From: Escherichia coli
GTDB taxonomy: Bacteria > Pseudomonadota > Gammaproteobacteria > Enterobacterales > Enterobacteriaceae
Strand: one strand, 5' to 3'
DNA length: 64,000 nt
Assembly (NCBI RefSeq): GCF_048403405.1
Contig: NZ_CP183129.1
Shown here piece by piece: positions 41,968 to 64,000 of this stretch. Made by a program: the position numbers and the translations under genes. The notes beneath the pieces are model-generated. The model searched no databases. It was not told where the DNA came from and saw only the letters and a list, made by a program, of their open reading frames with translations. The number at the start of each line of letters is the position of its first letter. Position 1 is the stretch's first letter.

Positions 41968-42260
41968 TATAAATGTCCCATTAAAGCTGGATAAATAAAT
42001 TGACGGCGACATCGGTAATTTGAGATTCGTTATAATTAAAAACGAACACAGAAAAAATAAGTATAATTTTGGTGAATGTTTTTGACATGATTAAATCCAT
42101 TTGCTTTATTTATTTCTGACATAATACGTTACTCCCTTTTATTATTAACGATCTGTTTCTCATTTTTCTTTAAACCTGCCTGTAACAGAATGTTAATAAG
42201 ACATGATTGTTGCGGCAGGATCTGCAATAATTAACAATTATCCACTTCACAGAGAATGCT

Positions 42261-42932
42261 ATGCAGTACCCGATTAACGAGATGTTCCAGACCCTGCAAG
42301 GTGAGGGTTACTTTACCGGCGTCCCCGCCATTTTTATTCGTTTACAGGGATGCCCGGTTGGCTGTGCCTGGTGCGACACCAAACACACCTGGGAAAAGCT
42401 TGAGGATCGGGAAGTCTCCCTTTTCAGCATTCTGGCGAAGACCAAAGAGAGTGATAAGTGGGGGGCGGCGAGCAGTGAAGACTTGCTGGCTGTCATTGGT
42501 CGCCAGGGATACACCGCGCGGCATGTGGTGATTACGGGTGGTGAGCCTTGCATTCATGATTTGCTGCCACTGACTGACCTGCTCGAAAAGAACGGTTTTA
42601 GCTGCCAGATCGAAACCAGTGGTACTCATGAAGTACGCTGCACACCGAATACCTGGGTTACCGTATCGCCAAAGCTGAACATGCGCGGCGGCTATGAAGT
42701 GTTGTCACAGGCACTGGAGCGAGCCAACGAAATCAAGCATCCAGTGGGACGCGTGCGTGATATTGAAGCACTGGATGAACTACTGGCAACACTGACCGAT
42801 GATAAACCGCGAGTCATTGCGCTGCAGCCGATTAGCCAAAAGGAAGATGCTACTCGTTTATGTATCGATACGTGCATTGCGCGCAACTGGCGTTTGTCGA
42901 TGCAAACACATAAATATTTAAATATTGCCTGA
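42261..42932 (+). CDS. queE: 7-carboxy-7-deazaguanine synthase (radical SAM)
   Basis: 223 aa MQYPINEMFQTLQGEGYFTGVPAIFIRLQGCPVGCAWCDTKHTW... (CxxxCxxC-variant radical SAM motif). Confidence 0.95.
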   Translation: MQYPINEMFQTLQGEGYFTGVPAIFIRLQGCPVGCAWCDTKHTWEKLEDREVSLFSILAKTKESDKWGAASSEDLLAVIGRQGYTARHVVITGGEPCIHDLLPLTDLLEKNGFSCQIETSGTHEVRCTPNTWVTVSPKLNMRGGYEVLSQALERANEIKHPVGRVRDIEALDELLATLTDDKPRVIALQPISQKEDATRLCIDTCIARNWRLSMQTHKYLNIA

Positions 42933-43069
42933 TTAAACATTTATAAGCGTTATAAATGGGTGGAACCTGTAAAGACTTCTACTCATTTATATTCTTTGTC
43001 GCCTCTAAAAAACCTCCATTTTGCCCATCCTGGACTAATCATTATCATTTTCTACAAATTCTGTGGTGT

Positions 43070-43270
43070 TAATTTTTCGTTGGAGTGAAAATTATTGCGG
43101 TGAAATTTGGTAGATTTTAGTTTGAATAGAGTTATTTTAAATATTTATCTTTTTAATCAATGGATTAAATGCTCTTTAACATAATGGATGTGTTGTTTGT
43201 GTGATCCTGTAAAGTTGGTAGATTGTGACTGGCTTAAAAAATCATTAATTAATAATAGGTTATGTTTAGA
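43070..43270 (+). promoter_or_regulatory. CRISPR leader (AT-rich, promoter and spacer-acquisition signals)
   Basis: About 200 bp AT-rich sequence ending ...aatcattaattaataataggttatgtttaga directly abutting the first repeat; degenerate repeats lie at the opposite end of the array, fixing polarity; left boundary approximate. Confidence 0.55.
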
Positions 43271-44031
43271 GTGTTCCCCGCGCCAGCGGGGATAAACCGC
43301 GTTCAGCGTTGCTGGGCTGCGCAATGGACTGGTGTTCCCCGCGCCAGCGGGGATAAACCGCGGAGTTTTCACGGAACGCACAGCGAATTATGGTGTTCCC
43401 CGCGCCAGCGGGGATAAACCGCCGATAAATTTTCGCCCCGTTTCCAGCGCCGCGTGTTCCCCGCGCCAGCGGGGATAAACCGTTCAAACTGTAGGGATCG
43501 GCAATGGTGCCGAAGTGTTCCCCGCGCCAGCGGGGATAAACCGGGGCATTAGAATAACTTAAATGGAAAAAGAAAGTGTTCCCCGCGCCAGCGGGGATAA
43601 ACCGTCAGCCAGCACATAATTTTTATAGTCAGTATTGTGTTCCCCGCGCCAGCGGGGATAAACCGAAAGAGGTTATCGAGCGATATAACGCGTCCATGTG
43701 TTCCCCGCGCCAGCGGGGATAAACCGGTGCCTGGCGTCCATCTATTCACATGCCGCGCGTGTTCCCCGCGCCAGCGGGGATAAACCGTATTGGCGACGAT
43801 GGCATACCAGGACTACTCCGTGTTCCCCGCGCCAGCGGGGATAAACCGGCTCAGCGTCTGCTCTGGTGCCTCGCCCGTGAGTGTTCCCCGCGCCAGCGGG
43901 GATAAACCGGACCGTTACGGGCGCGTTCTTGGACTTGTTGAGTGTTCCCCACATCAGCGGGGATAAACCGGACACAGAGCGCCGCTATAGCGCCTATGCC
44001 AAGAGTTTCCCGCACCAGCGGGAATAAACCA
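43271..44031 (+). CRISPR. Type I-E CRISPR array: 13 repeats of 29 bp, 12 spacers of 32 bp (the queE-ygcE array of E. coli)
   Basis: Repeat GTGTTCCCCGCGCCAGCGGGGATAAACCG at 43271, 43332, 43393, 43454, 43515, 43576, 43637, 43698, 43759, 43820, 43881, then degenerate copies at 43942 (gtgttccccacatcagcggggataaaccg) and 44003 (gagtttcccgcaccagcgggaataaacca); exact 61-bp period. Confidence 0.97.
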
Positions 44032-44500
44032 CCATATAACCCGTTATCTCTTTCTCAAGTTTTTATATTAGCTGTACTTGTAATAAGCAACATATCCACG
44101 TAACACCTCATGTTCAAAATAGTTCTCCATGTCAGAGAAGTTCACAATTATCGATACAAAAAATTAAATTTAATCAAAGTGTTATTTGTATGATTCTTAA
44201 ATCGTTAAGAAATTTTAATCTATTATTTTTTTAATATTGAATTAATGCCTGTTAATTTTTTCTTTAGAATAACAGTGTGTTTTTTAAGCTTGTTATTCAT
44301 TGATTAAGTAATAAATCTGGAAGTTTGTCTTTGTTTTGAGGCTAATGAGTGGTTTTACATAACCGTCTCTATAGGCTGTTGATGAATAGTTCTTATGAAT
44401 AAAGATATCCAGTTCATACTTTAAATGAAAATTGATAAAGTACGGTTTGCGTTGTCTTTTATTCTAAAGACATCGAGTGTAGTTAATATTCCTTGTAAAA

Positions 44501-44623
44501 ACAGGGATAAACCGAACTAGTTAAAGTTTTTATTATGTTCCCTGCATCAGCGGGGATAAACCGGACTTGTTATCATTTTTTAAGTTGTCGAACTTATGTT
44601 CCCCACGTCAGCGGGGATAACCA
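44501..44623 (+). CRISPR. Decayed satellite CRISPR array (truncated repeat, two degenerate repeats, one 32-bp spacer)
   Basis: Partial repeat cagggataaaccg (ends 44514), degenerate repeats atgttccctgcatcagcggggataaaccg (44535-44563) and atgttccccacgtcagcggggataacc (44596-44623) separated by a 32-bp spacer; preceded by about 470 bp of AT-rich leader-like sequence. Confidence 0.8.
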
Positions 44624-44669
44624 TTCAGGTATGTTCAGGCCGGGCAGTTTCCCGCCCGGTCTTCCTCAC

Positions 44670-46148
44670 TTACGCATTCGACCAGCTCTGGATCGAATCC
44701 GCATTCCCCAATTCCCCATGCATCACTTCATACGATTTTTTCAGGATTACATCAGTATGTTTGGTTAACTCCTTGAAAATGCCTTTATTCATCGCGTTGT
44801 AGCGTTTGGCGTTGCTCTCAACAGGCATAAAGATATCTTTCACGCGAACCATTTTGTCGACAGCCGTTGCGTAATCCGGGTATAGCCCCAGACCTACCGC
44901 CGTATTAATCGCTGCCCCCAGGCTTGCACAACCATTAATGGCGTTACGGCGTGCCGGAAGGTTGAACACGTCGGCAAAAATCTGCATAAACAGATCGCTG
45001 TTCGAACCGCCGCCAGTAATGATCACATGCTTTGCAAAGTGATTCATTTCATTACACATATTGTCGTAATTGTTCTTCAGCGTCAGCGCCACGCTTTCCA
45101 GTATCGAACGATATATCCATGCGTAATCCATGCTGGAATCAAAGCCAATCATAATCCCGCGTTTGTACGGTTCCCACGGATTGGTCAGCCAGTCCAGCAC
45201 CGTCATCAGACCATTACAGCCTGGCGGCACACAAGACGCTTTTTTGTTGAGCAAATCTTCCGGTGAAAGATCCTGTGCTTTGGCATCCTGAATTAACGAC
45301 TCGCCTAACATGTCGCGTAGCCAGCTCACCGTCCACATGCCTTTGCGAATACCGTAACCTTCATACAGCAAGGTTTGCGGAATAGAAGACATAATCGGCC
45401 AGTACGCTACCGGATCTTTCGGTAGTAATTTGCCGTTCATCATCAACGCGATGTAAGTGCCAAGAGAAATTACCGCAGTTTCATCATCCAGTAACCCGGC
45501 TCCCAGTGCTTCTACCGGTTTATCACTGGTGGTACAAACAACCGGCAGCCCAGCCGGGAAATGTGTCGCCAGCGCGGCTTGAGGAGTGATATGCCCAAGA
45601 ACAGTGCCCGGCATTTGCACATCAAACAGCATATGACGGGGGATATTAAACTTCTCCATGACTGCGGCATCTTCACTCCATGCCCAGGTCTTATAATCCA
45701 CCGGCCACTGACCAAAATAGTTGGCGATATTGTCTTTAAACTCGCCGGTTAAGCGATGCGTCAGATAACCCGAAAAAGAGGTGACATATGCCACGTCAGG
45801 ATTCGTATGTTCGTAAGGGCGTGTAACGCGTGCATCCTGCCAGCTAATCAACGGCGCAGCTGGCGTGCCATCGGCTTTCAATAACGCACGGCAGCAACGG
45901 ATGGATCCCAGACCAATACCGACAATATCTTCTTTATTTCCGGCAAACTGACTCATCAAATCGTGACCGGCAAAGCATAATGATGCCCATAAATCGTCGT
46001 CAGGATGTTCTGCGGTATCGGCATCTGGCGTGTGCATCGGCTGCAATAAGCCTTTGCCTTCGCAAACCACATTACCTTCCAGATCGTACATCACCACTTT
46101 TGTGCTCTGACTTCCACCATCAATCCCTATGATGTATTTTTTCGACAT
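44670..46148 (-). CDS. ygcE: FGGY-family carbohydrate kinase (uncharacterised substrate)
   Basis: 492 aa MSKKYIIGIDGGSQSTKVVMYDLEGN...; FGGY sugar kinase fold; matches YgcE. Confidence 0.88.
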   Translation of the reverse strand: MSKKYIIGIDGGSQSTKVVMYDLEGNVVCEGKGLLQPMHTPDADTAEHPDDDLWASLCFAGHDLMSQFAGNKEDIVGIGLGSIRCCRALLKADGTPAAPLISWQDARVTRPYEHTNPDVAYVTSFSGYLTHRLTGEFKDNIANYFGQWPVDYKTWAWSEDAAVMEKFNIPRHMLFDVQMPGTVLGHITPQAALATHFPAGLPVVCTTSDKPVEALGAGLLDDETAVISLGTYIALMMNGKLLPKDPVAYWPIMSSIPQTLLYEGYGIRKGMWTVSWLRDMLGESLIQDAKAQDLSPEDLLNKKASCVPPGCNGLMTVLDWLTNPWEPYKRGIMIGFDSSMDYAWIYRSILESVALTLKNNYDNMCNEMNHFAKHVIITGGGSNSDLFMQIFADVFNLPARRNAINGCASLGAAINTAVGLGLYPDYATAVDKMVRVKDIFMPVESNAKRYNAMNKGIFKELTKHTDVILKKSYEVMHGELGNADSIQSWSNA

Positions 46149-60725: not shown

Positions 60726-60878
60726 ATGCTGACAAAATATGCCCTTGTGGCAATCATCGTACTGTGTTGTACAGTACTGGGATTCACGCTGATGGTAGGC
60801 GACTCGTTGTGTGAGTTGAGTATCAGAGAACGTGGTATGGAGTTTAAGGCAGTTCTCGCTTACGAATCGAAGAAGTAG
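60726..60878 (+). CDS. Hok-family type I toxin (50-aa small membrane protein), part of a hok/sok-like locus
   Basis: [53 protein letters not shown]: N-terminal TM helix plus conserved Hok motif DSLCE...R...[11 protein letters not shown]; below the 60-aa cutoff of the ORF track; followed by hairpin cgcgggg gtaaaa ccccgcg (60885-60904) and a T run; K-12 carries a hok/sok-type locus (sokX) at this position. Confidence 0.8.
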
Positions 60879-61115
60879 CCACCACGCGGGGGTAAAACCC
60901 CGCGTATTGGATTGTGATGGTTTGGTCTCCTGCACCCTTTTTTAATTTATATTGTTTATGTAAATATTATGCCTATGTTTATTATTCATATATATTACGG
61001 ATGAAAATTATTTGATTATTCATAATGTAAATATTTTATTGAACGATATATATCACAGATAATTTTTAATATATGCGTAAATATCCTTTAAGTTTTACTG
61101 AAGGATAAAAACATT

Positions 61116-63773
61116 GTGACTTTCTTTGATTTCTGGGGAAAAACCCGACGTGGCGAGAAAGAGGGTGGTGACGACTATCACCTTCTTTGCTGGCATTCGC
61201 TGGATGTAGCCGCGATGGGCTATTTAATGGTTAAAAGCAATTGCTTCGGGCTGGCTGACTATTTTCGTCAACTAGGTTTCGCTGATACGGAGCAGGCAGC
61301 ACAATTTTTCGCCTGGTTGCTGTGCTGGCACGATACTGGAAAATTTGCCCGCTCTTTTCAGCAACTTTACCTGCACCCGCAACTCAAGGTTCCGGAAAGC
61401 TCTAGAAAAAATTACGAAAAAATCTCTCATTCAACGCTGGGTTACTGGTTGTGGCACCATTATTTAAGTGAATGCGAAGAATTGCTTCCTTCATCTTCAC
61501 TCTCTCCGCGCAAACTTAAACGGGTGATAGAGATGTGGATGCCCATGACTACCGGGCATCATGGTCGCCCGCCTGACCGTATGGATGAACTGGATAATTT
61601 TCTGCCTGAAGACAAAGCCGCCGCGCGAGATTTTCTCCTTGTAATCAAGGCACTGTTTCCTCTCATCGAGATCCCCGCATTCTGGGATGATGACGATGGC
61701 GTTGAACTTTTAAAACAACTTTCCTGGTATATCTCTGCAACTGTCGTACTTGCAGACTGGACGGGATCGTCAACGCGATTTTTTCCACGCGTCGCGCAGG
61801 CAATGGATATTGAAGATTACTGGCAGAAGGCTTTAGTTCAGGCTCAAAACGCATTAACCGTCTTTCCTCCAAAAGCACAAACCGCGCCTTTCACCGGAAT
61901 TAATACGCTGTTTCCTTTTATTGAGCACCCGACACCGTTACAGCAAAAGGTGCTGGATCTGGATATCAGCCAGCCTGGGCCACAGTTATTTATTCTGGAG
62001 GATGTGACTGGCGCAGGTAAAACAGAAGCGGCGCTTATCCTGGCCCACAGGTTGATGGCTGCGGGGAAAGCACAGGGTTTGTTTTTTGGCCTGCCAACAA
62101 TGGCAACGGCCAATGCCATGTACGATCGGCTGGTAAAAACCTGGCTTGCTTTCTATTCGCCAGAATCCCGCCCCAGCCTGGTGCTGGCACACAGTGCCCG
62201 CACATTAATGGACCGCTTTAATGAATCACTCTGGTCCGGTGATTTAGTCGGGTCAGAAGAACCGGATGAACAAGCGTTCAGTCAGGGATGTGCGGCCTGG
62301 TTTGCCGACAGTAACAAGAAGGCGTTGCTGGCTGAAATTGGCGTCGGCACGCTGGATCAGGCGATGATGGCGGTGATGCCGTTTAAACATAATAATCTGC
62401 GGCTTCTGGGACTGAGTAACAAAATCCTGCTGGCTGATGAGATCCATGCCTGTGACGCTTACATGTCGTGCATTCTTGAAGGATTGATTGAGCGGCAGGC
62501 GCGTGGCGGAAACAGCGTTATTTTGCTTTCTGCCACGTTATCTCAACAGCAGCGCGACAAACTCGTTGCTGCCTTTGCGCGTGGTGCAGAGGGTCAGCAA
62601 GAAGCTCCGTTCCTGGAAAAGGATGATTACCCCTGGCTGACGCACGTTACGAAATCGGATGTGCATTCACACCGGGTAGCAACGCGCAAAGACGTTGAGC
62701 GTAGCGTGAGCGTGGGTTGGCTTCATAGCGAACAAGAGTGTATTGCGCGTATCGAATCGGCGGTAAGTCAGGGGAAATGCATCGCCTGGATCCGGAATTC
62801 TGTCGATGATGCTATTAAAGTTCATCGTCAGTTGCTTGCCCGCGGCGTCATTCCTGCTTCCAGCCTTTCTCTGTTTCATAGCCGCTTTGCTTTTAGCGAT
62901 CGCCAGCGAATTGAAACGGAAACGCTGGCACGCTTCGGTAAAGAAGATAGCTCACAGCGTGCCGGAAAAGTCCTCATTTGTACTCAGGTCTTAGAGTCGA
63001 GCGTTGATTGCGATATGGACGAAATGATTTCCGACCTGGCCCCTGTTGATTTGCTGATCCAGCGAGCGGGGCGATTACAGCGGCATATCCGCGATATTAA
63101 TGGTCAGTTAAAGCGTGACGGAAAAGACGAGCGTTCTCCTCCTGAATTGCTGATTCTGGCCCCCGTCTGGGACGACGCTCCAGGTGACGAATGGTTCGGC
63201 AGTGCCATGCGTAACAGTGCATATGTCTATCCCGATCATGGACGAATCTGGCTGACGCAGCGTGTACTGCGTGAGCAAGGCGCGATTCAAATGCCACACG
63301 CAGCCCGCCTTCTTATTGAATCAGTCTACGGTGAGGACGTGGTAATGCCGGAAGGATTTGCCCGCAGCGAGCAGGAACAAGTGGGCAAATATTACTGCGA
63401 TCGCGCAATGGCTAAAAAGTTTGTGCTGAACTTCAGGCCCGGCTATGCCGCCAATATCAACGATTACCTCCCGGAAAAGCTGTCGACACGTCTGGCTGAG
63501 GAGTCTGTTTCCCTGTGGCTGGCTACCTGTATTGACGGTGTGGTGAAGCCTTATGCCACCGGTGCTCACGCATGGGAAATGAGCGTTGTCAGAGTGCGTC
63601 GAAGCTGGTGGAAAAAACATTGCGATGAGTTTTCTTTACTGGAAGGGGAAGCGTTCAGGCAGTGGTGCGTTGAACAGCGGCAAGATCCGGAGATGGCAAA
63701 TGTGATTTTAGTTACCGATGACGAAAGTTGCGGGTATTCGGCTAGGGAGGGATTGATTGGTAAGGTTGATTGA
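61116..63773 (+). CDS. cas3: Cas3 (type I-E CRISPR-associated HD nuclease / SF2 helicase), non-K-12 allele
   Basis: 885 aa; HD motifs (HSLDVAA, WHDTGKF), helicase motif I TGAGKTEA, motif II DEIH, motif III SATL, motif VI QRAGRLQRH; GTG start; sits directly downstream of cysH as in E. coli; N-terminal sequence differs from the K-12 Cas3 I recall (MEPFKYICHYWGKS...). Confidence 0.9.
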   Translation: MTFFDFWGKTRRGEKEGGDDYHLLCWHSLDVAAMGYLMVKSNCFGLADYFRQLGFADTEQAAQFFAWLLCWHDTGKFARSFQQLYLHPQLKVPESSRKNYEKISHSTLGYWLWHHYLSECEELLPSSSLSPRKLKRVIEMWMPMTTGHHGRPPDRMDELDNFLPEDKAAARDFLLVIKALFPLIEIPAFWDDDDGVELLKQLSWYISATVVLADWTGSSTRFFPRVAQAMDIEDYWQKALVQAQNALTVFPPKAQTAPFTGINTLFPFIEHPTPLQQKVLDLDISQPGPQLFILEDVTGAGKTEAALILAHRLMAAGKAQGLFFGLPTMATANAMYDRLVKTWLAFYSPESRPSLVLAHSARTLMDRFNESLWSGDLVGSEEPDEQAFSQGCAAWFADSNKKALLAEIGVGTLDQAMMAVMPFKHNNLRLLGLSNKILLADEIHACDAYMSCILEGLIERQARGGNSVILLSATLSQQQRDKLVAAFARGAEGQQEAPFLEKDDYPWLTHVTKSDVHSHRVATRKDVERSVSVGWLHSEQECIARIESAVSQGKCIAWIRNSVDDAIKVHRQLLARGVIPASSLSLFHSRFAFSDRQRIETETLARFGKEDSSQRAGKVLICTQVLESSVDCDMDEMISDLAPVDLLIQRAGRLQRHIRDINGQLKRDGKDERSPPELLILAPVWDDAPGDEWFGSAMRNSAYVYPDHGRIWLTQRVLREQGAIQMPHAARLLIESVYGEDVVMPEGFARSEQEQVGKYYCDRAMAKKFVLNFRPGYAANINDYLPEKLSTRLAEESVSLWLATCIDGVVKPYATGAHAWEMSVVRVRRSWWKKHCDEFSLLEGEAFRQWCVEQRQDPEMANVILVTDDESCGYSAREGLIGKVD

Positions 63774-63889: not shown

Positions 63890-64000
63890 GGGAGTATAGC
63901 ATCTACTGAGATGAATTTGTTTTGATATTTAATGTGAACTTCCTCTTACTGCCTTTACATTTTTCTATGCGAGGAGTAATCTTTGCTCAGTTTGGGAGAG

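Follow-up and report, generated by a model that had tools for sequence, protein, structure and literature searches.

The CRISPR-II locus of Escherichia coli is composed of the CRISPR2.3 array, which has its own leader (leader 2.3), and of the small CRISPR2.2 array located 0.5 kb apart, and it occurs whatever cas-E variant a strain has (PMC3903273, PMC3737337). Both CRISPR2.1 and CRISPR2.3 possess a leader and take up new spacers on the side next to it (PMC3903273, PMC3737337), shared spacers occupying the leader-distal end (PMC3903273). CRISPR2.1 lies directly beside the cas operon and has a leader that changes together with the cas variant, while CRISPR2.3 has one leader type across strains and fits the strain phylogeny more closely than CRISPR2.1 does (PMC3903273). 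Leader 2.3 carries a promoter, and its first 40-60 bp are needed for acquisition (PMC3903273, PMC3737337). The targets of E. coli spacers were long mostly unknown and those found are almost exclusively prophages; when up to 4 mismatches are allowed, the share of E. coli spacers with a match rises to about 60% (PMC10910852).

Examination of the window, i.e. the whole stretch of 64,000 nucleotides of E. coli DNA analysed here, places such a locus in its second half. Positions 43271-44031 almost certainly correspond to the CRISPR2.3 array (CRISPR-II, or CRISPR2) of the E. coli type I-E system, at the queE-ygcE site. Of 5,426 complete E. coli genomes, 5,423 have a match to the 2-kb array region, and every match listed has an annotated CRISPR feature lying between queE and ygcE. 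Positions 22900-64000 of the window (41 kb) are 99.8% identical to E. coli TUM14771, and the orthologous stretch is labelled CRISPR by RefSeq in TUM14771, K-12, 4621 and GN02461. The annotated layout of queE, array and ygcE is the same as in K-12, and comprises the following features:

42261-42932, + strand: queE (ygcF), upstream flank of the CRISPR-II locus; ORF with annotation carried over from TUM14771 (99.8% identical)

42933-43270 (338 bp), + strand: leader 2.3, 29% GC, abutting repeat 1; placed by alignment with K-12 and strain 042

43271-44031, + strand: CRISPR2.3 array, read left to right, with 12 spacers (32 nt each) between 13 repeats (29 nt each)

44032-44485, strand not assigned: trailer between CRISPR2.3 and CRISPR2.2, AT-rich (27.5% GC)

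44486-44624, + strand: CRISPR2.2 vestigial mini-array, with repeats at 44486-44514, 44535-44563 and 44596-44624

44670-46148, - strand: ygcE (FGGY-family kinase), downstream flank of the CRISPR-II locus; ORF and TUM14771 annotation

Repeat finding combined with direct extraction allowed us to delimit 13 repeat copies of 29 nt each on the + strand of 43271-44031, with starts at 43271 + 61k (k = 0 to 12), the start-to-start distance being 61 nt in all 12 intervals of the array. The 12 spacers between them are all distinct and each is exactly 32 nt long (43300-43331 for the first to 43971-44002 for the last). Repeats 1-11 are identical (GTGTTCCCCGCGCCAGCGGGGATAAACCG), and the same 11 of the 13 repeats match the K-12 CRISPR2.3 repeat exactly. 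No insertion element interrupts the array. The presence of eleven identical 29-mers at a constant 61-nt period excludes a chance origin of the array. A first-pass annotation of this DNA had described an intact type I-E array with 12 spacers, all of exactly 32 bp; our extraction agrees with that description, its coordinates and counts were correct, and the repeat, which has the sequence of K-12 CRISPR2.3, is of the E. coli type-2 (I-E) family.

The 29/32 split into repeat and spacer used here is the conventional partition. The final G of each repeat comes from the protospacer side (PMC3737337), and the unit can therefore be read as a 28-nt repeat followed by a 33-nt spacer, a reading that agrees with the G of the ATG PAM at all three protospacers described below. 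In silico folding of the consensus repeat predicts a hairpin with a 7-bp stem and a 4-nt loop (-15.2 kcal/mol, z = -3.2), and the palindromic core of the repeat is predicted to be the hairpin recognised by Cas6e.

The two last repeats depart from the consensus, with 3 and 5 mismatches, respectively:

43942-43970, + strand: repeat 12, degenerate, GTGTTCCCCACATCAGCGGGGATAAACCG (G10A, G12A, C13T)

44003-44031, + strand: repeat 13, terminal, GAGTTTCCCGCACCAGCGGGAATAAACCA (T2A, C6T, G12A, G21A, G29A)

In repeat 12, one pair of the stem is broken by G10A, and the predicted fold is -9.0 kcal/mol against -15.2 kcal/mol for the consensus. Strains 042, TUM14771 and GN02461 have an older form of this repeat, ACGT, and the window and strain 4621 have ACAT, with a further G-to-A change. 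In repeat 13, T2A and G29A are also present in the terminal repeats of K-12 and 042, which identifies them as old features of the locus and not as lineage-specific decay; the three lineage-specific changes are C6T, G12A and G21A. The decay of the terminal repeats had been taken in the first-pass annotation as the mark of the leader-distal end. The position is right, but lineage-specific decay accounts for only part of the changes, T2A and G29A being older. C6T and G21A constitute a compensatory pair, a curiosity in its own right, and a 7-bp hairpin is still predicted for the terminal repeat, with a fold of -11.9 kcal/mol here versus -15.1 kcal/mol in K-12 and 042. The trailer after repeat 13 reads CCATATAACCCGTTATCTC, the same as in K-12.

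On the other side of the array, the 338 bp of the leader align over their full length with K-12 and 042, and the last 70 bp before repeat 1 are identical in all three. The stretch 42933-43270 is the expected location of the array promoter and of the spacer-integration signals. A promoter scan of the leader reached at best 9 of 12 consensus positions, a score that shuffled sequence attains as well, and revealed no strong sigma-70 consensus.

CRISPR2.2 begins 0.45 kb downstream of CRISPR2.3 and differs from K-12 by one base. It is made of three degenerate repeats with spacers of 20 nt and 32 nt; its repeats are very divergent and their hairpins are still predicted to form. The strong conservation of this vestigial element is a second curiosity of the locus. 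Autoregulation of the cr-like type, by CRISPR2.2 spacers matching the region upstream of cas3 or other window sequence, was considered and rejected, the best match being 20/32, which is chance level.

The spacers were compared with those of other strains. Any of the 12 spacers is found in 52 of the 5,426 complete E. coli genomes, and six genomes hold most of them. The related arrays and the two end spacers can be described as follows:

Strain 4621: 13 spacers, namely the 12 of the window in unchanged order and one extra unit between S06 and S07

MS 69-1, TUM1226 and the OX030728 isolate: appear to be the same as 4621 (identical span and score)

TUM14771: extra unit present, S03 absent

GN02461: extra unit present, S01 absent

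43300-43331, + strand: S01, leader-proximal and presumably the newest spacer; absent from GN02461

43971-44002, + strand: S12, at the trailer end and the oldest; anchor spacer common to several lineages, present in about 40 of the 52 spacer-sharing genomes

The spacer of the extra unit in strain 4621 is ACAGCATGAGCGTAATCAGTTGCGATTCCATC. Apart from this 61-bp unit, 2 SNPs are the sole differences between the window and strain 4621 across 3.6 kb, and the exact arrangement of 12 spacers was found in none of the 5,426 complete E. coli genomes. As judged from these alignments, the window array is a single-unit (61-bp) deletion derivative of the 13-spacer array of strain 4621. A comparison of spacer order with other strains had been proposed in the first-pass annotation as a check; all 12 spacers occur in strain 4621 with their order kept, so that spacer novelty is refuted. 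The array is already known, it is an ordinary textbook feature of E. coli, and none of its spacers is novel.

A search of spacer targets yielded credible ones for three of the 12 spacers (S02, S06 and S08), and all of these targets are in temperate elements:

43361-43392, + strand: S02; its protospacer, with 5' ATG, is in the baseplate J gene of a P2-family prophage carried by E. coli N1420 (31/32)

43605-43636, + strand: S06; its protospacer, with 5' ATG, is in a DNA adenine methylase gene that belongs to a P2-like prophage of E. coli 40EC (32/32)

43727-43758, + strand: S08; its match in phage P1 is to pmgT (28/32, with positions 4, 5, 17 and 32 mismatched; 5' ATG)

S08, further match: pmgT homologue of the P1-like Leclercia plasmid pZ96-1_2 (31/32, 5' ACG, non-consensus)

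S08, further match: pmgT homologue of the E. coli plasmid pGMI14-004_3, of about 48 kb (29/32, 5' ATG)

All spacers were searched by BLAST against INPHARED (phage) and PLSDB (plasmid) at E <= 1. This comparison with phage and plasmid databases, also suggested by the first-pass annotation, returned credible matches for S08 only; the plasmid records of PLSDB matching S08 number 206, of which 201 are non-mobilizable. A match of S10 to Gordonia phage GMA2 (26/28, E = 0.1) was rejected as chance, the host being an actinobacterium. The prophage of 40EC around the S06 protospacer carries genes for ogr/Delta, a replication endonuclease, a portal protein, a terminase and an integrase. When the protospacers were examined for the AWG PAM, ATG was found on the 5' side for S02, for S06 and for S08 in both P1 and pGMI14-004_3, while the closest match of S08, that of Leclercia, has ACG. 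These targets, in P2-family prophages and P1-like phage-plasmids, agree with the view that E. coli spacers are directed mainly against temperate elements (PMC10910852).

By analogy with studied type I-E systems, the targets of S06 and S02 should be cleavable. Seed mismatches impair direct interference in type I-E systems. The mismatches of S08 to P1 at positions 4 and 5 are seed mismatches, so that direct interference with P1 would probably be poor or escaped, with priming at most.

The remaining 9 of the 12 spacers gave no target match in INPHARED, PLSDB and the E. coli genomes and, for some of them, in IMG/VR, JGI and GTDB. For S01, S03, S04, S07, S09, S10 and S11, the search of complete E. 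coli genomes at E <= 10 recovered other CRISPR arrays only. Exact-pattern scans of IMG/VR, in which the flipped positions (6, 12, 18, 24 and 30) were set to N, returned no match for S01, S03, S04, S06, S07 and S12. S06 was thus missed in IMG/VR despite having a 32/32 protospacer in an E. coli prophage, which indicates that nulls obtained with exact patterns are weak. Neither the scan of JGI metagenomes for S01 nor that of GTDB species representatives for S03 produced a match. Self-targeting within the window was looked for on both strands by blastn-short and by exhaustive Hamming comparison, and the best match outside the array was 21/32, i.e. chance level; against the cas/CRISPR2.1 region of TUM14771 the best match of the spacers was 20/32. 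In the genomes sharing the array, each genome has one matching place at >= 31/32 and no second one.

The cas genes lie at the far end of the window, where two features are relevant:

60726-60878, + strand: toxin gene of the Hok/Gef family, with cysH and cas3 on either side, a mark of the E1 (non-K-12) form of the CRISPR-I locus; annotation from the identical TUM14771 sequence

61116-63773, + strand: cas3, type I-E nuclease-helicase, 885 aa, GTG start; ORF with HD and helicase profile matches

The start of cas3 is 17,085 bp from the end of CRISPR2.3, in accordance with the distance of about 17 kb given in the first-pass annotation. An AAGGA motif is located upstream of the GTG start at 61116. 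Cas3 covers the whole HD profile (positions 1-178 of 178) and also matches the helicase core; its alignment with the K-12 Cas3 profile begins at position 6 and scores 424 bits, below the equivalog cut-off of 569. The exact 885-aa protein is present in NCBI as an intact Cas3 on 214 contigs. The cas3 sequence of the window is identical to that of TUM14771, which RefSeq flags as frameshifted, and the RefSeq start is an ATG 43 nt upstream (window position 61073) in another frame. With complete domains and an intact protein on 214 contigs, we take the flag to be a start-site annotation issue and not proof of inactivation. As far as can be told from its sequence, cas3 looks intact and full length. 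To judge from TUM14771, which has a complete cas-E operon and a CRISPR2.1 array of 397 bp, the genes casA to cas2 and CRISPR2.1 would lie past position 64000.

The hok-sok genes are found in all strains but those with the E2 (K-12) variant (PMC3903273), and the adjacent hok together with the divergent Cas3 therefore indicates the major non-K-12 (E1/cas-EO) variant. CAT (= ATG) is the commonest PAM for spacers of arrays tied to the non-K-12 variant (PMC3737337). The ATG motifs found here fit the PAM bias of the E1/cas-EO variant, in agreement with the reported link between the non-K-12 cas variant and the CAT/ATG PAM (PMC3737337).

By analogy with K-12, a promoter in the queE-side leader would drive transcription of the array from left to right into a pre-crRNA, and Cas6e would cleave it at the hairpin base to produce 61-nt crRNAs composed of a 5' handle (AUAAACCG), a 32-nt guide and a 3' hairpin. 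Cascade loaded with a crRNA would locate DNA with a matching protospacer bearing an AWG PAM on its 5' side, and Cas3, encoded 17 kb off, would degrade the DNA marked in this way. New spacers would be inserted at the leader-repeat junction by Cas1-Cas2. The reading that fits the array best is a record of past temperate-phage encounters, inherited vertically and changing slowly.

Several other explanations deserve to be weighed against this reading. That the repeats are not CRISPR, but REP/BIME elements, a minisatellite, some other tandem or interspersed repeat or an assembly artefact, has a practically negligible probability in the face of the exact 61-nt period, the unique and non-repetitive spacers, a repeat matching exactly the characterised I-E repeat of E. 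coli, an orthologous locus in 5,423 of 5,426 genomes (with CRISPR annotated between queE and ygcE among the matches listed) and spacers that match phage genes with the correct PAM. What could be put forward for it is the Rfam search of the repeats, which returned no covariance-model match at the gathering score and, at E <= 1, the irrelevant Chlorobi-1 as sole match (15.8 bits); the Rfam copy used seems to be without a model for the E. coli repeat, and this null result therefore has no bearing on the CRISPR identity. A genuine array could also have been given the wrong polarity, with its leader on the ygcE side in 44032-44485 and the array read from right to left. The ygcE-side stretch, at 27.5% GC, is indeed as AT-rich as the queE side (29%), but since both flanks share this property AT-richness alone is no guide to polarity. 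The + strand sense of the repeats is that of the K-12 array adjoining leader 2.3, GTGTTCCCCGCGCCAGCGGGGATAAACCG reading 5'-3' on the + strand as it does in K-12 beside this leader (PMC3737337). The GN02461 array lacks the queE-proximal unit (repeat 1 and S01) yet is otherwise collinear with the shared array, so that this relative departs from the common order in a queE-end unit only. Strain 042 shares S12 alone, the ygcE-proximal spacer, and S12 is likewise the sole common spacer in about 40 genomes; this most widely shared spacer and the degenerate repeats are both at the ygcE end. Finally, ATG is immediately 5' of all three protospacers found when these are taken in + strand orientation, which is the position of the AWG PAM only if the crRNA is the + strand. 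Taken together, the repeat sense, GN02461, the sharing of S12 and the 5' ATG put the leader on the queE side and make S12 the oldest spacer, and a reversed array is extremely unlikely. The first-pass annotation had also placed the leader at the queE side, and the repeat sense, the K-12-identical leader end, the PAM side and the array comparison all concur.

With identity and polarity settled in this manner, the main live alternative is that the record is currently silent and not an active defence, in view of the laboratory repression reported for E. coli. In such a case the locus would be a genuine CRISPR2.3 array, unexpressed or unused, kept by vertical inheritance with slow loss of units and of no present value for defence; we put this a little below an even chance. 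E. coli CRISPR-Cas is described as inactive in laboratory conditions through a transcriptional repressor, and its arrays as stable over years (PMC10910852). A silent array would be consistent with spacers that are near-unchanged in several isolates of human origin, Japanese and US, where the changes are limited to single-unit losses and one unit at the leader end, and with the 9 of 12 spacers unmatched in phage, plasmid, E. coli, IMG/VR and metagenome collections; the RefSeq frameshift flag on the identical cas3 of TUM14771 points the same way. Against it stand the perfect conservation of repeats 1-11, an intact leader end, a cas3 that looks full length and the complete cas-E operon retained by the nearest relative, TUM14771. 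The spacer carriers are also without the protospacer elsewhere (>= 31/32), an observation that both working interference and simple non-exposure fit. A different proposal is that the trailer end is kept for a non-immune role, an S12 crRNA or CRISPR2.2 cr-like RNAs serving, instead of being inert remnants, as regulatory guides whose target could be a partially matching host or prophage sequence. It arises because S12 is conserved in some 40 genomes from differing lineages, C6T/G21A keeps the hairpin of the terminal repeat, and CRISPR2.2 is near-invariant between this strain and K-12 and is still predicted to fold; we consider such a role to be very improbable.

The window array, read as an inherited record of temperate-phage encounters, adds to the CRISPR2.3 variants already on record one that differs from a known 13-spacer array by the deletion of a single unit. 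It is usable as a strain-typing marker, which places this genome beside 4621, MS 69-1, TUM14771 and GN02461. Known biology is confirmed here, not extended.

Among described systems, strain 4621 resembles the window down to the degenerate end of the array, where both terminal repeats are the same, including ACAT in repeat 12. CRISPR2.1 (CRISPR-I), beside cas2 and iap, has a repeat of the same family and uses the same Cas machinery. CRISPR2.3 of K-12 MG1655 occupies the same site and has the same GTGTTCCCCGCGCCAGCGGGGATAAACCG repeat, 61-nt period, last 70 bp of the leader, trailer and CRISPR2.2, and its terminal repeat carries T2A and G29A as in the window. In contrast, the K-12 array has 6 spacers, none of them in common with the window, is without the degenerate penultimate repeat, and ends on a terminal repeat without C6T, G12A and G21A. 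K-12 also represents the minor E2 cas variant, with no hok beside cas3, whereas hok is present in the window (PMC3903273).

The following two features lie at the cas3 end of the window:

60726-60878, Hok/Gef family toxin gene, between cysH and cas3
61073-63773, cas3, identical in sequence to the copy of the close relative TUM14771

RefSeq lists the TUM14771 cas3 as a frameshifted pseudogene, starting it at an ATG 43 nt upstream of the GTG at 61116 and in a different frame. From this GTG runs an 885-aa open reading frame with complete HD and helicase domains, and the 885-aa protein is itself a database entry, recorded as an intact Cas3 on 214 contigs. The pseudogene flag thus seems to reflect a discrepancy in annotation rather than a true inactivation. 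All E. coli other than carriers of the K-12 (E2) cas variant have hok-sok at this site (PMC3903273); the Hok/Gef gene between cysH and cas3 therefore marks the window strain as a carrier of E1, the major non-K-12 variant.

In CRISPR2.3, the 12-spacer type I-E array, the terminal repeat (44003-44031) carries three lineage-specific changes. The hairpin of this repeat is kept because two of them, C6T and G21A, fall on opposite sides of the same stem pair. By a rough estimate, the chance of such a coincidence is a few percent. The pair could reflect ongoing selection for processing of the crRNA from S12, the oldest, trailer-end spacer, or it could be mere coincidence. A second, vestigial array lies about 0.45 kb downstream:

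44486-44624, CRISPR2.2 mini-array, three very degenerate repeats with spacers of 20 nt and 32 nt

Folding still predicts a type I-E hairpin for all three of these divergent repeats. The first is changed on both strands of its stem, yet the full 7-bp stem is predicted to be retained (ATATTCCTTGTAAAAACAGGGATAAACCG, predicted -7.9 kcal/mol). A single base separates the mini-array from that of K-12. A search with its spacers against the window and the cas region gave a best match of 20/32, which is at chance level.

The leader of CRISPR2.3, on the queE side, contains two copies (43107-43116 and 43215-43224) of the 10-nt motif TTGGTAGATT, both of which are conserved in K-12 and in strain 042. A role in protein binding or in promoter function is possible for this motif, but its duplication may equally be a chance repeat within AT-rich DNA.

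Between ygcG and queE, a small ORF (about 41980-42125, minus strand) is the orthologue of yqcG, coding in K-12 for a cell envelope stress response protein; it is marked as frameshifted in the annotations of three close relatives, TUM14771, 4621 and GN02461.

All CRISPR2.3 repeats of the window have G as their last base, with the exception of the terminal repeat. In K-12 (L002 1934-1962), the second CRISPR2.3 repeat ends in T instead (…ATAAACCT), which fits the view of the last repeat base as the protospacer-side, 33rd nucleotide (PMC3737337).
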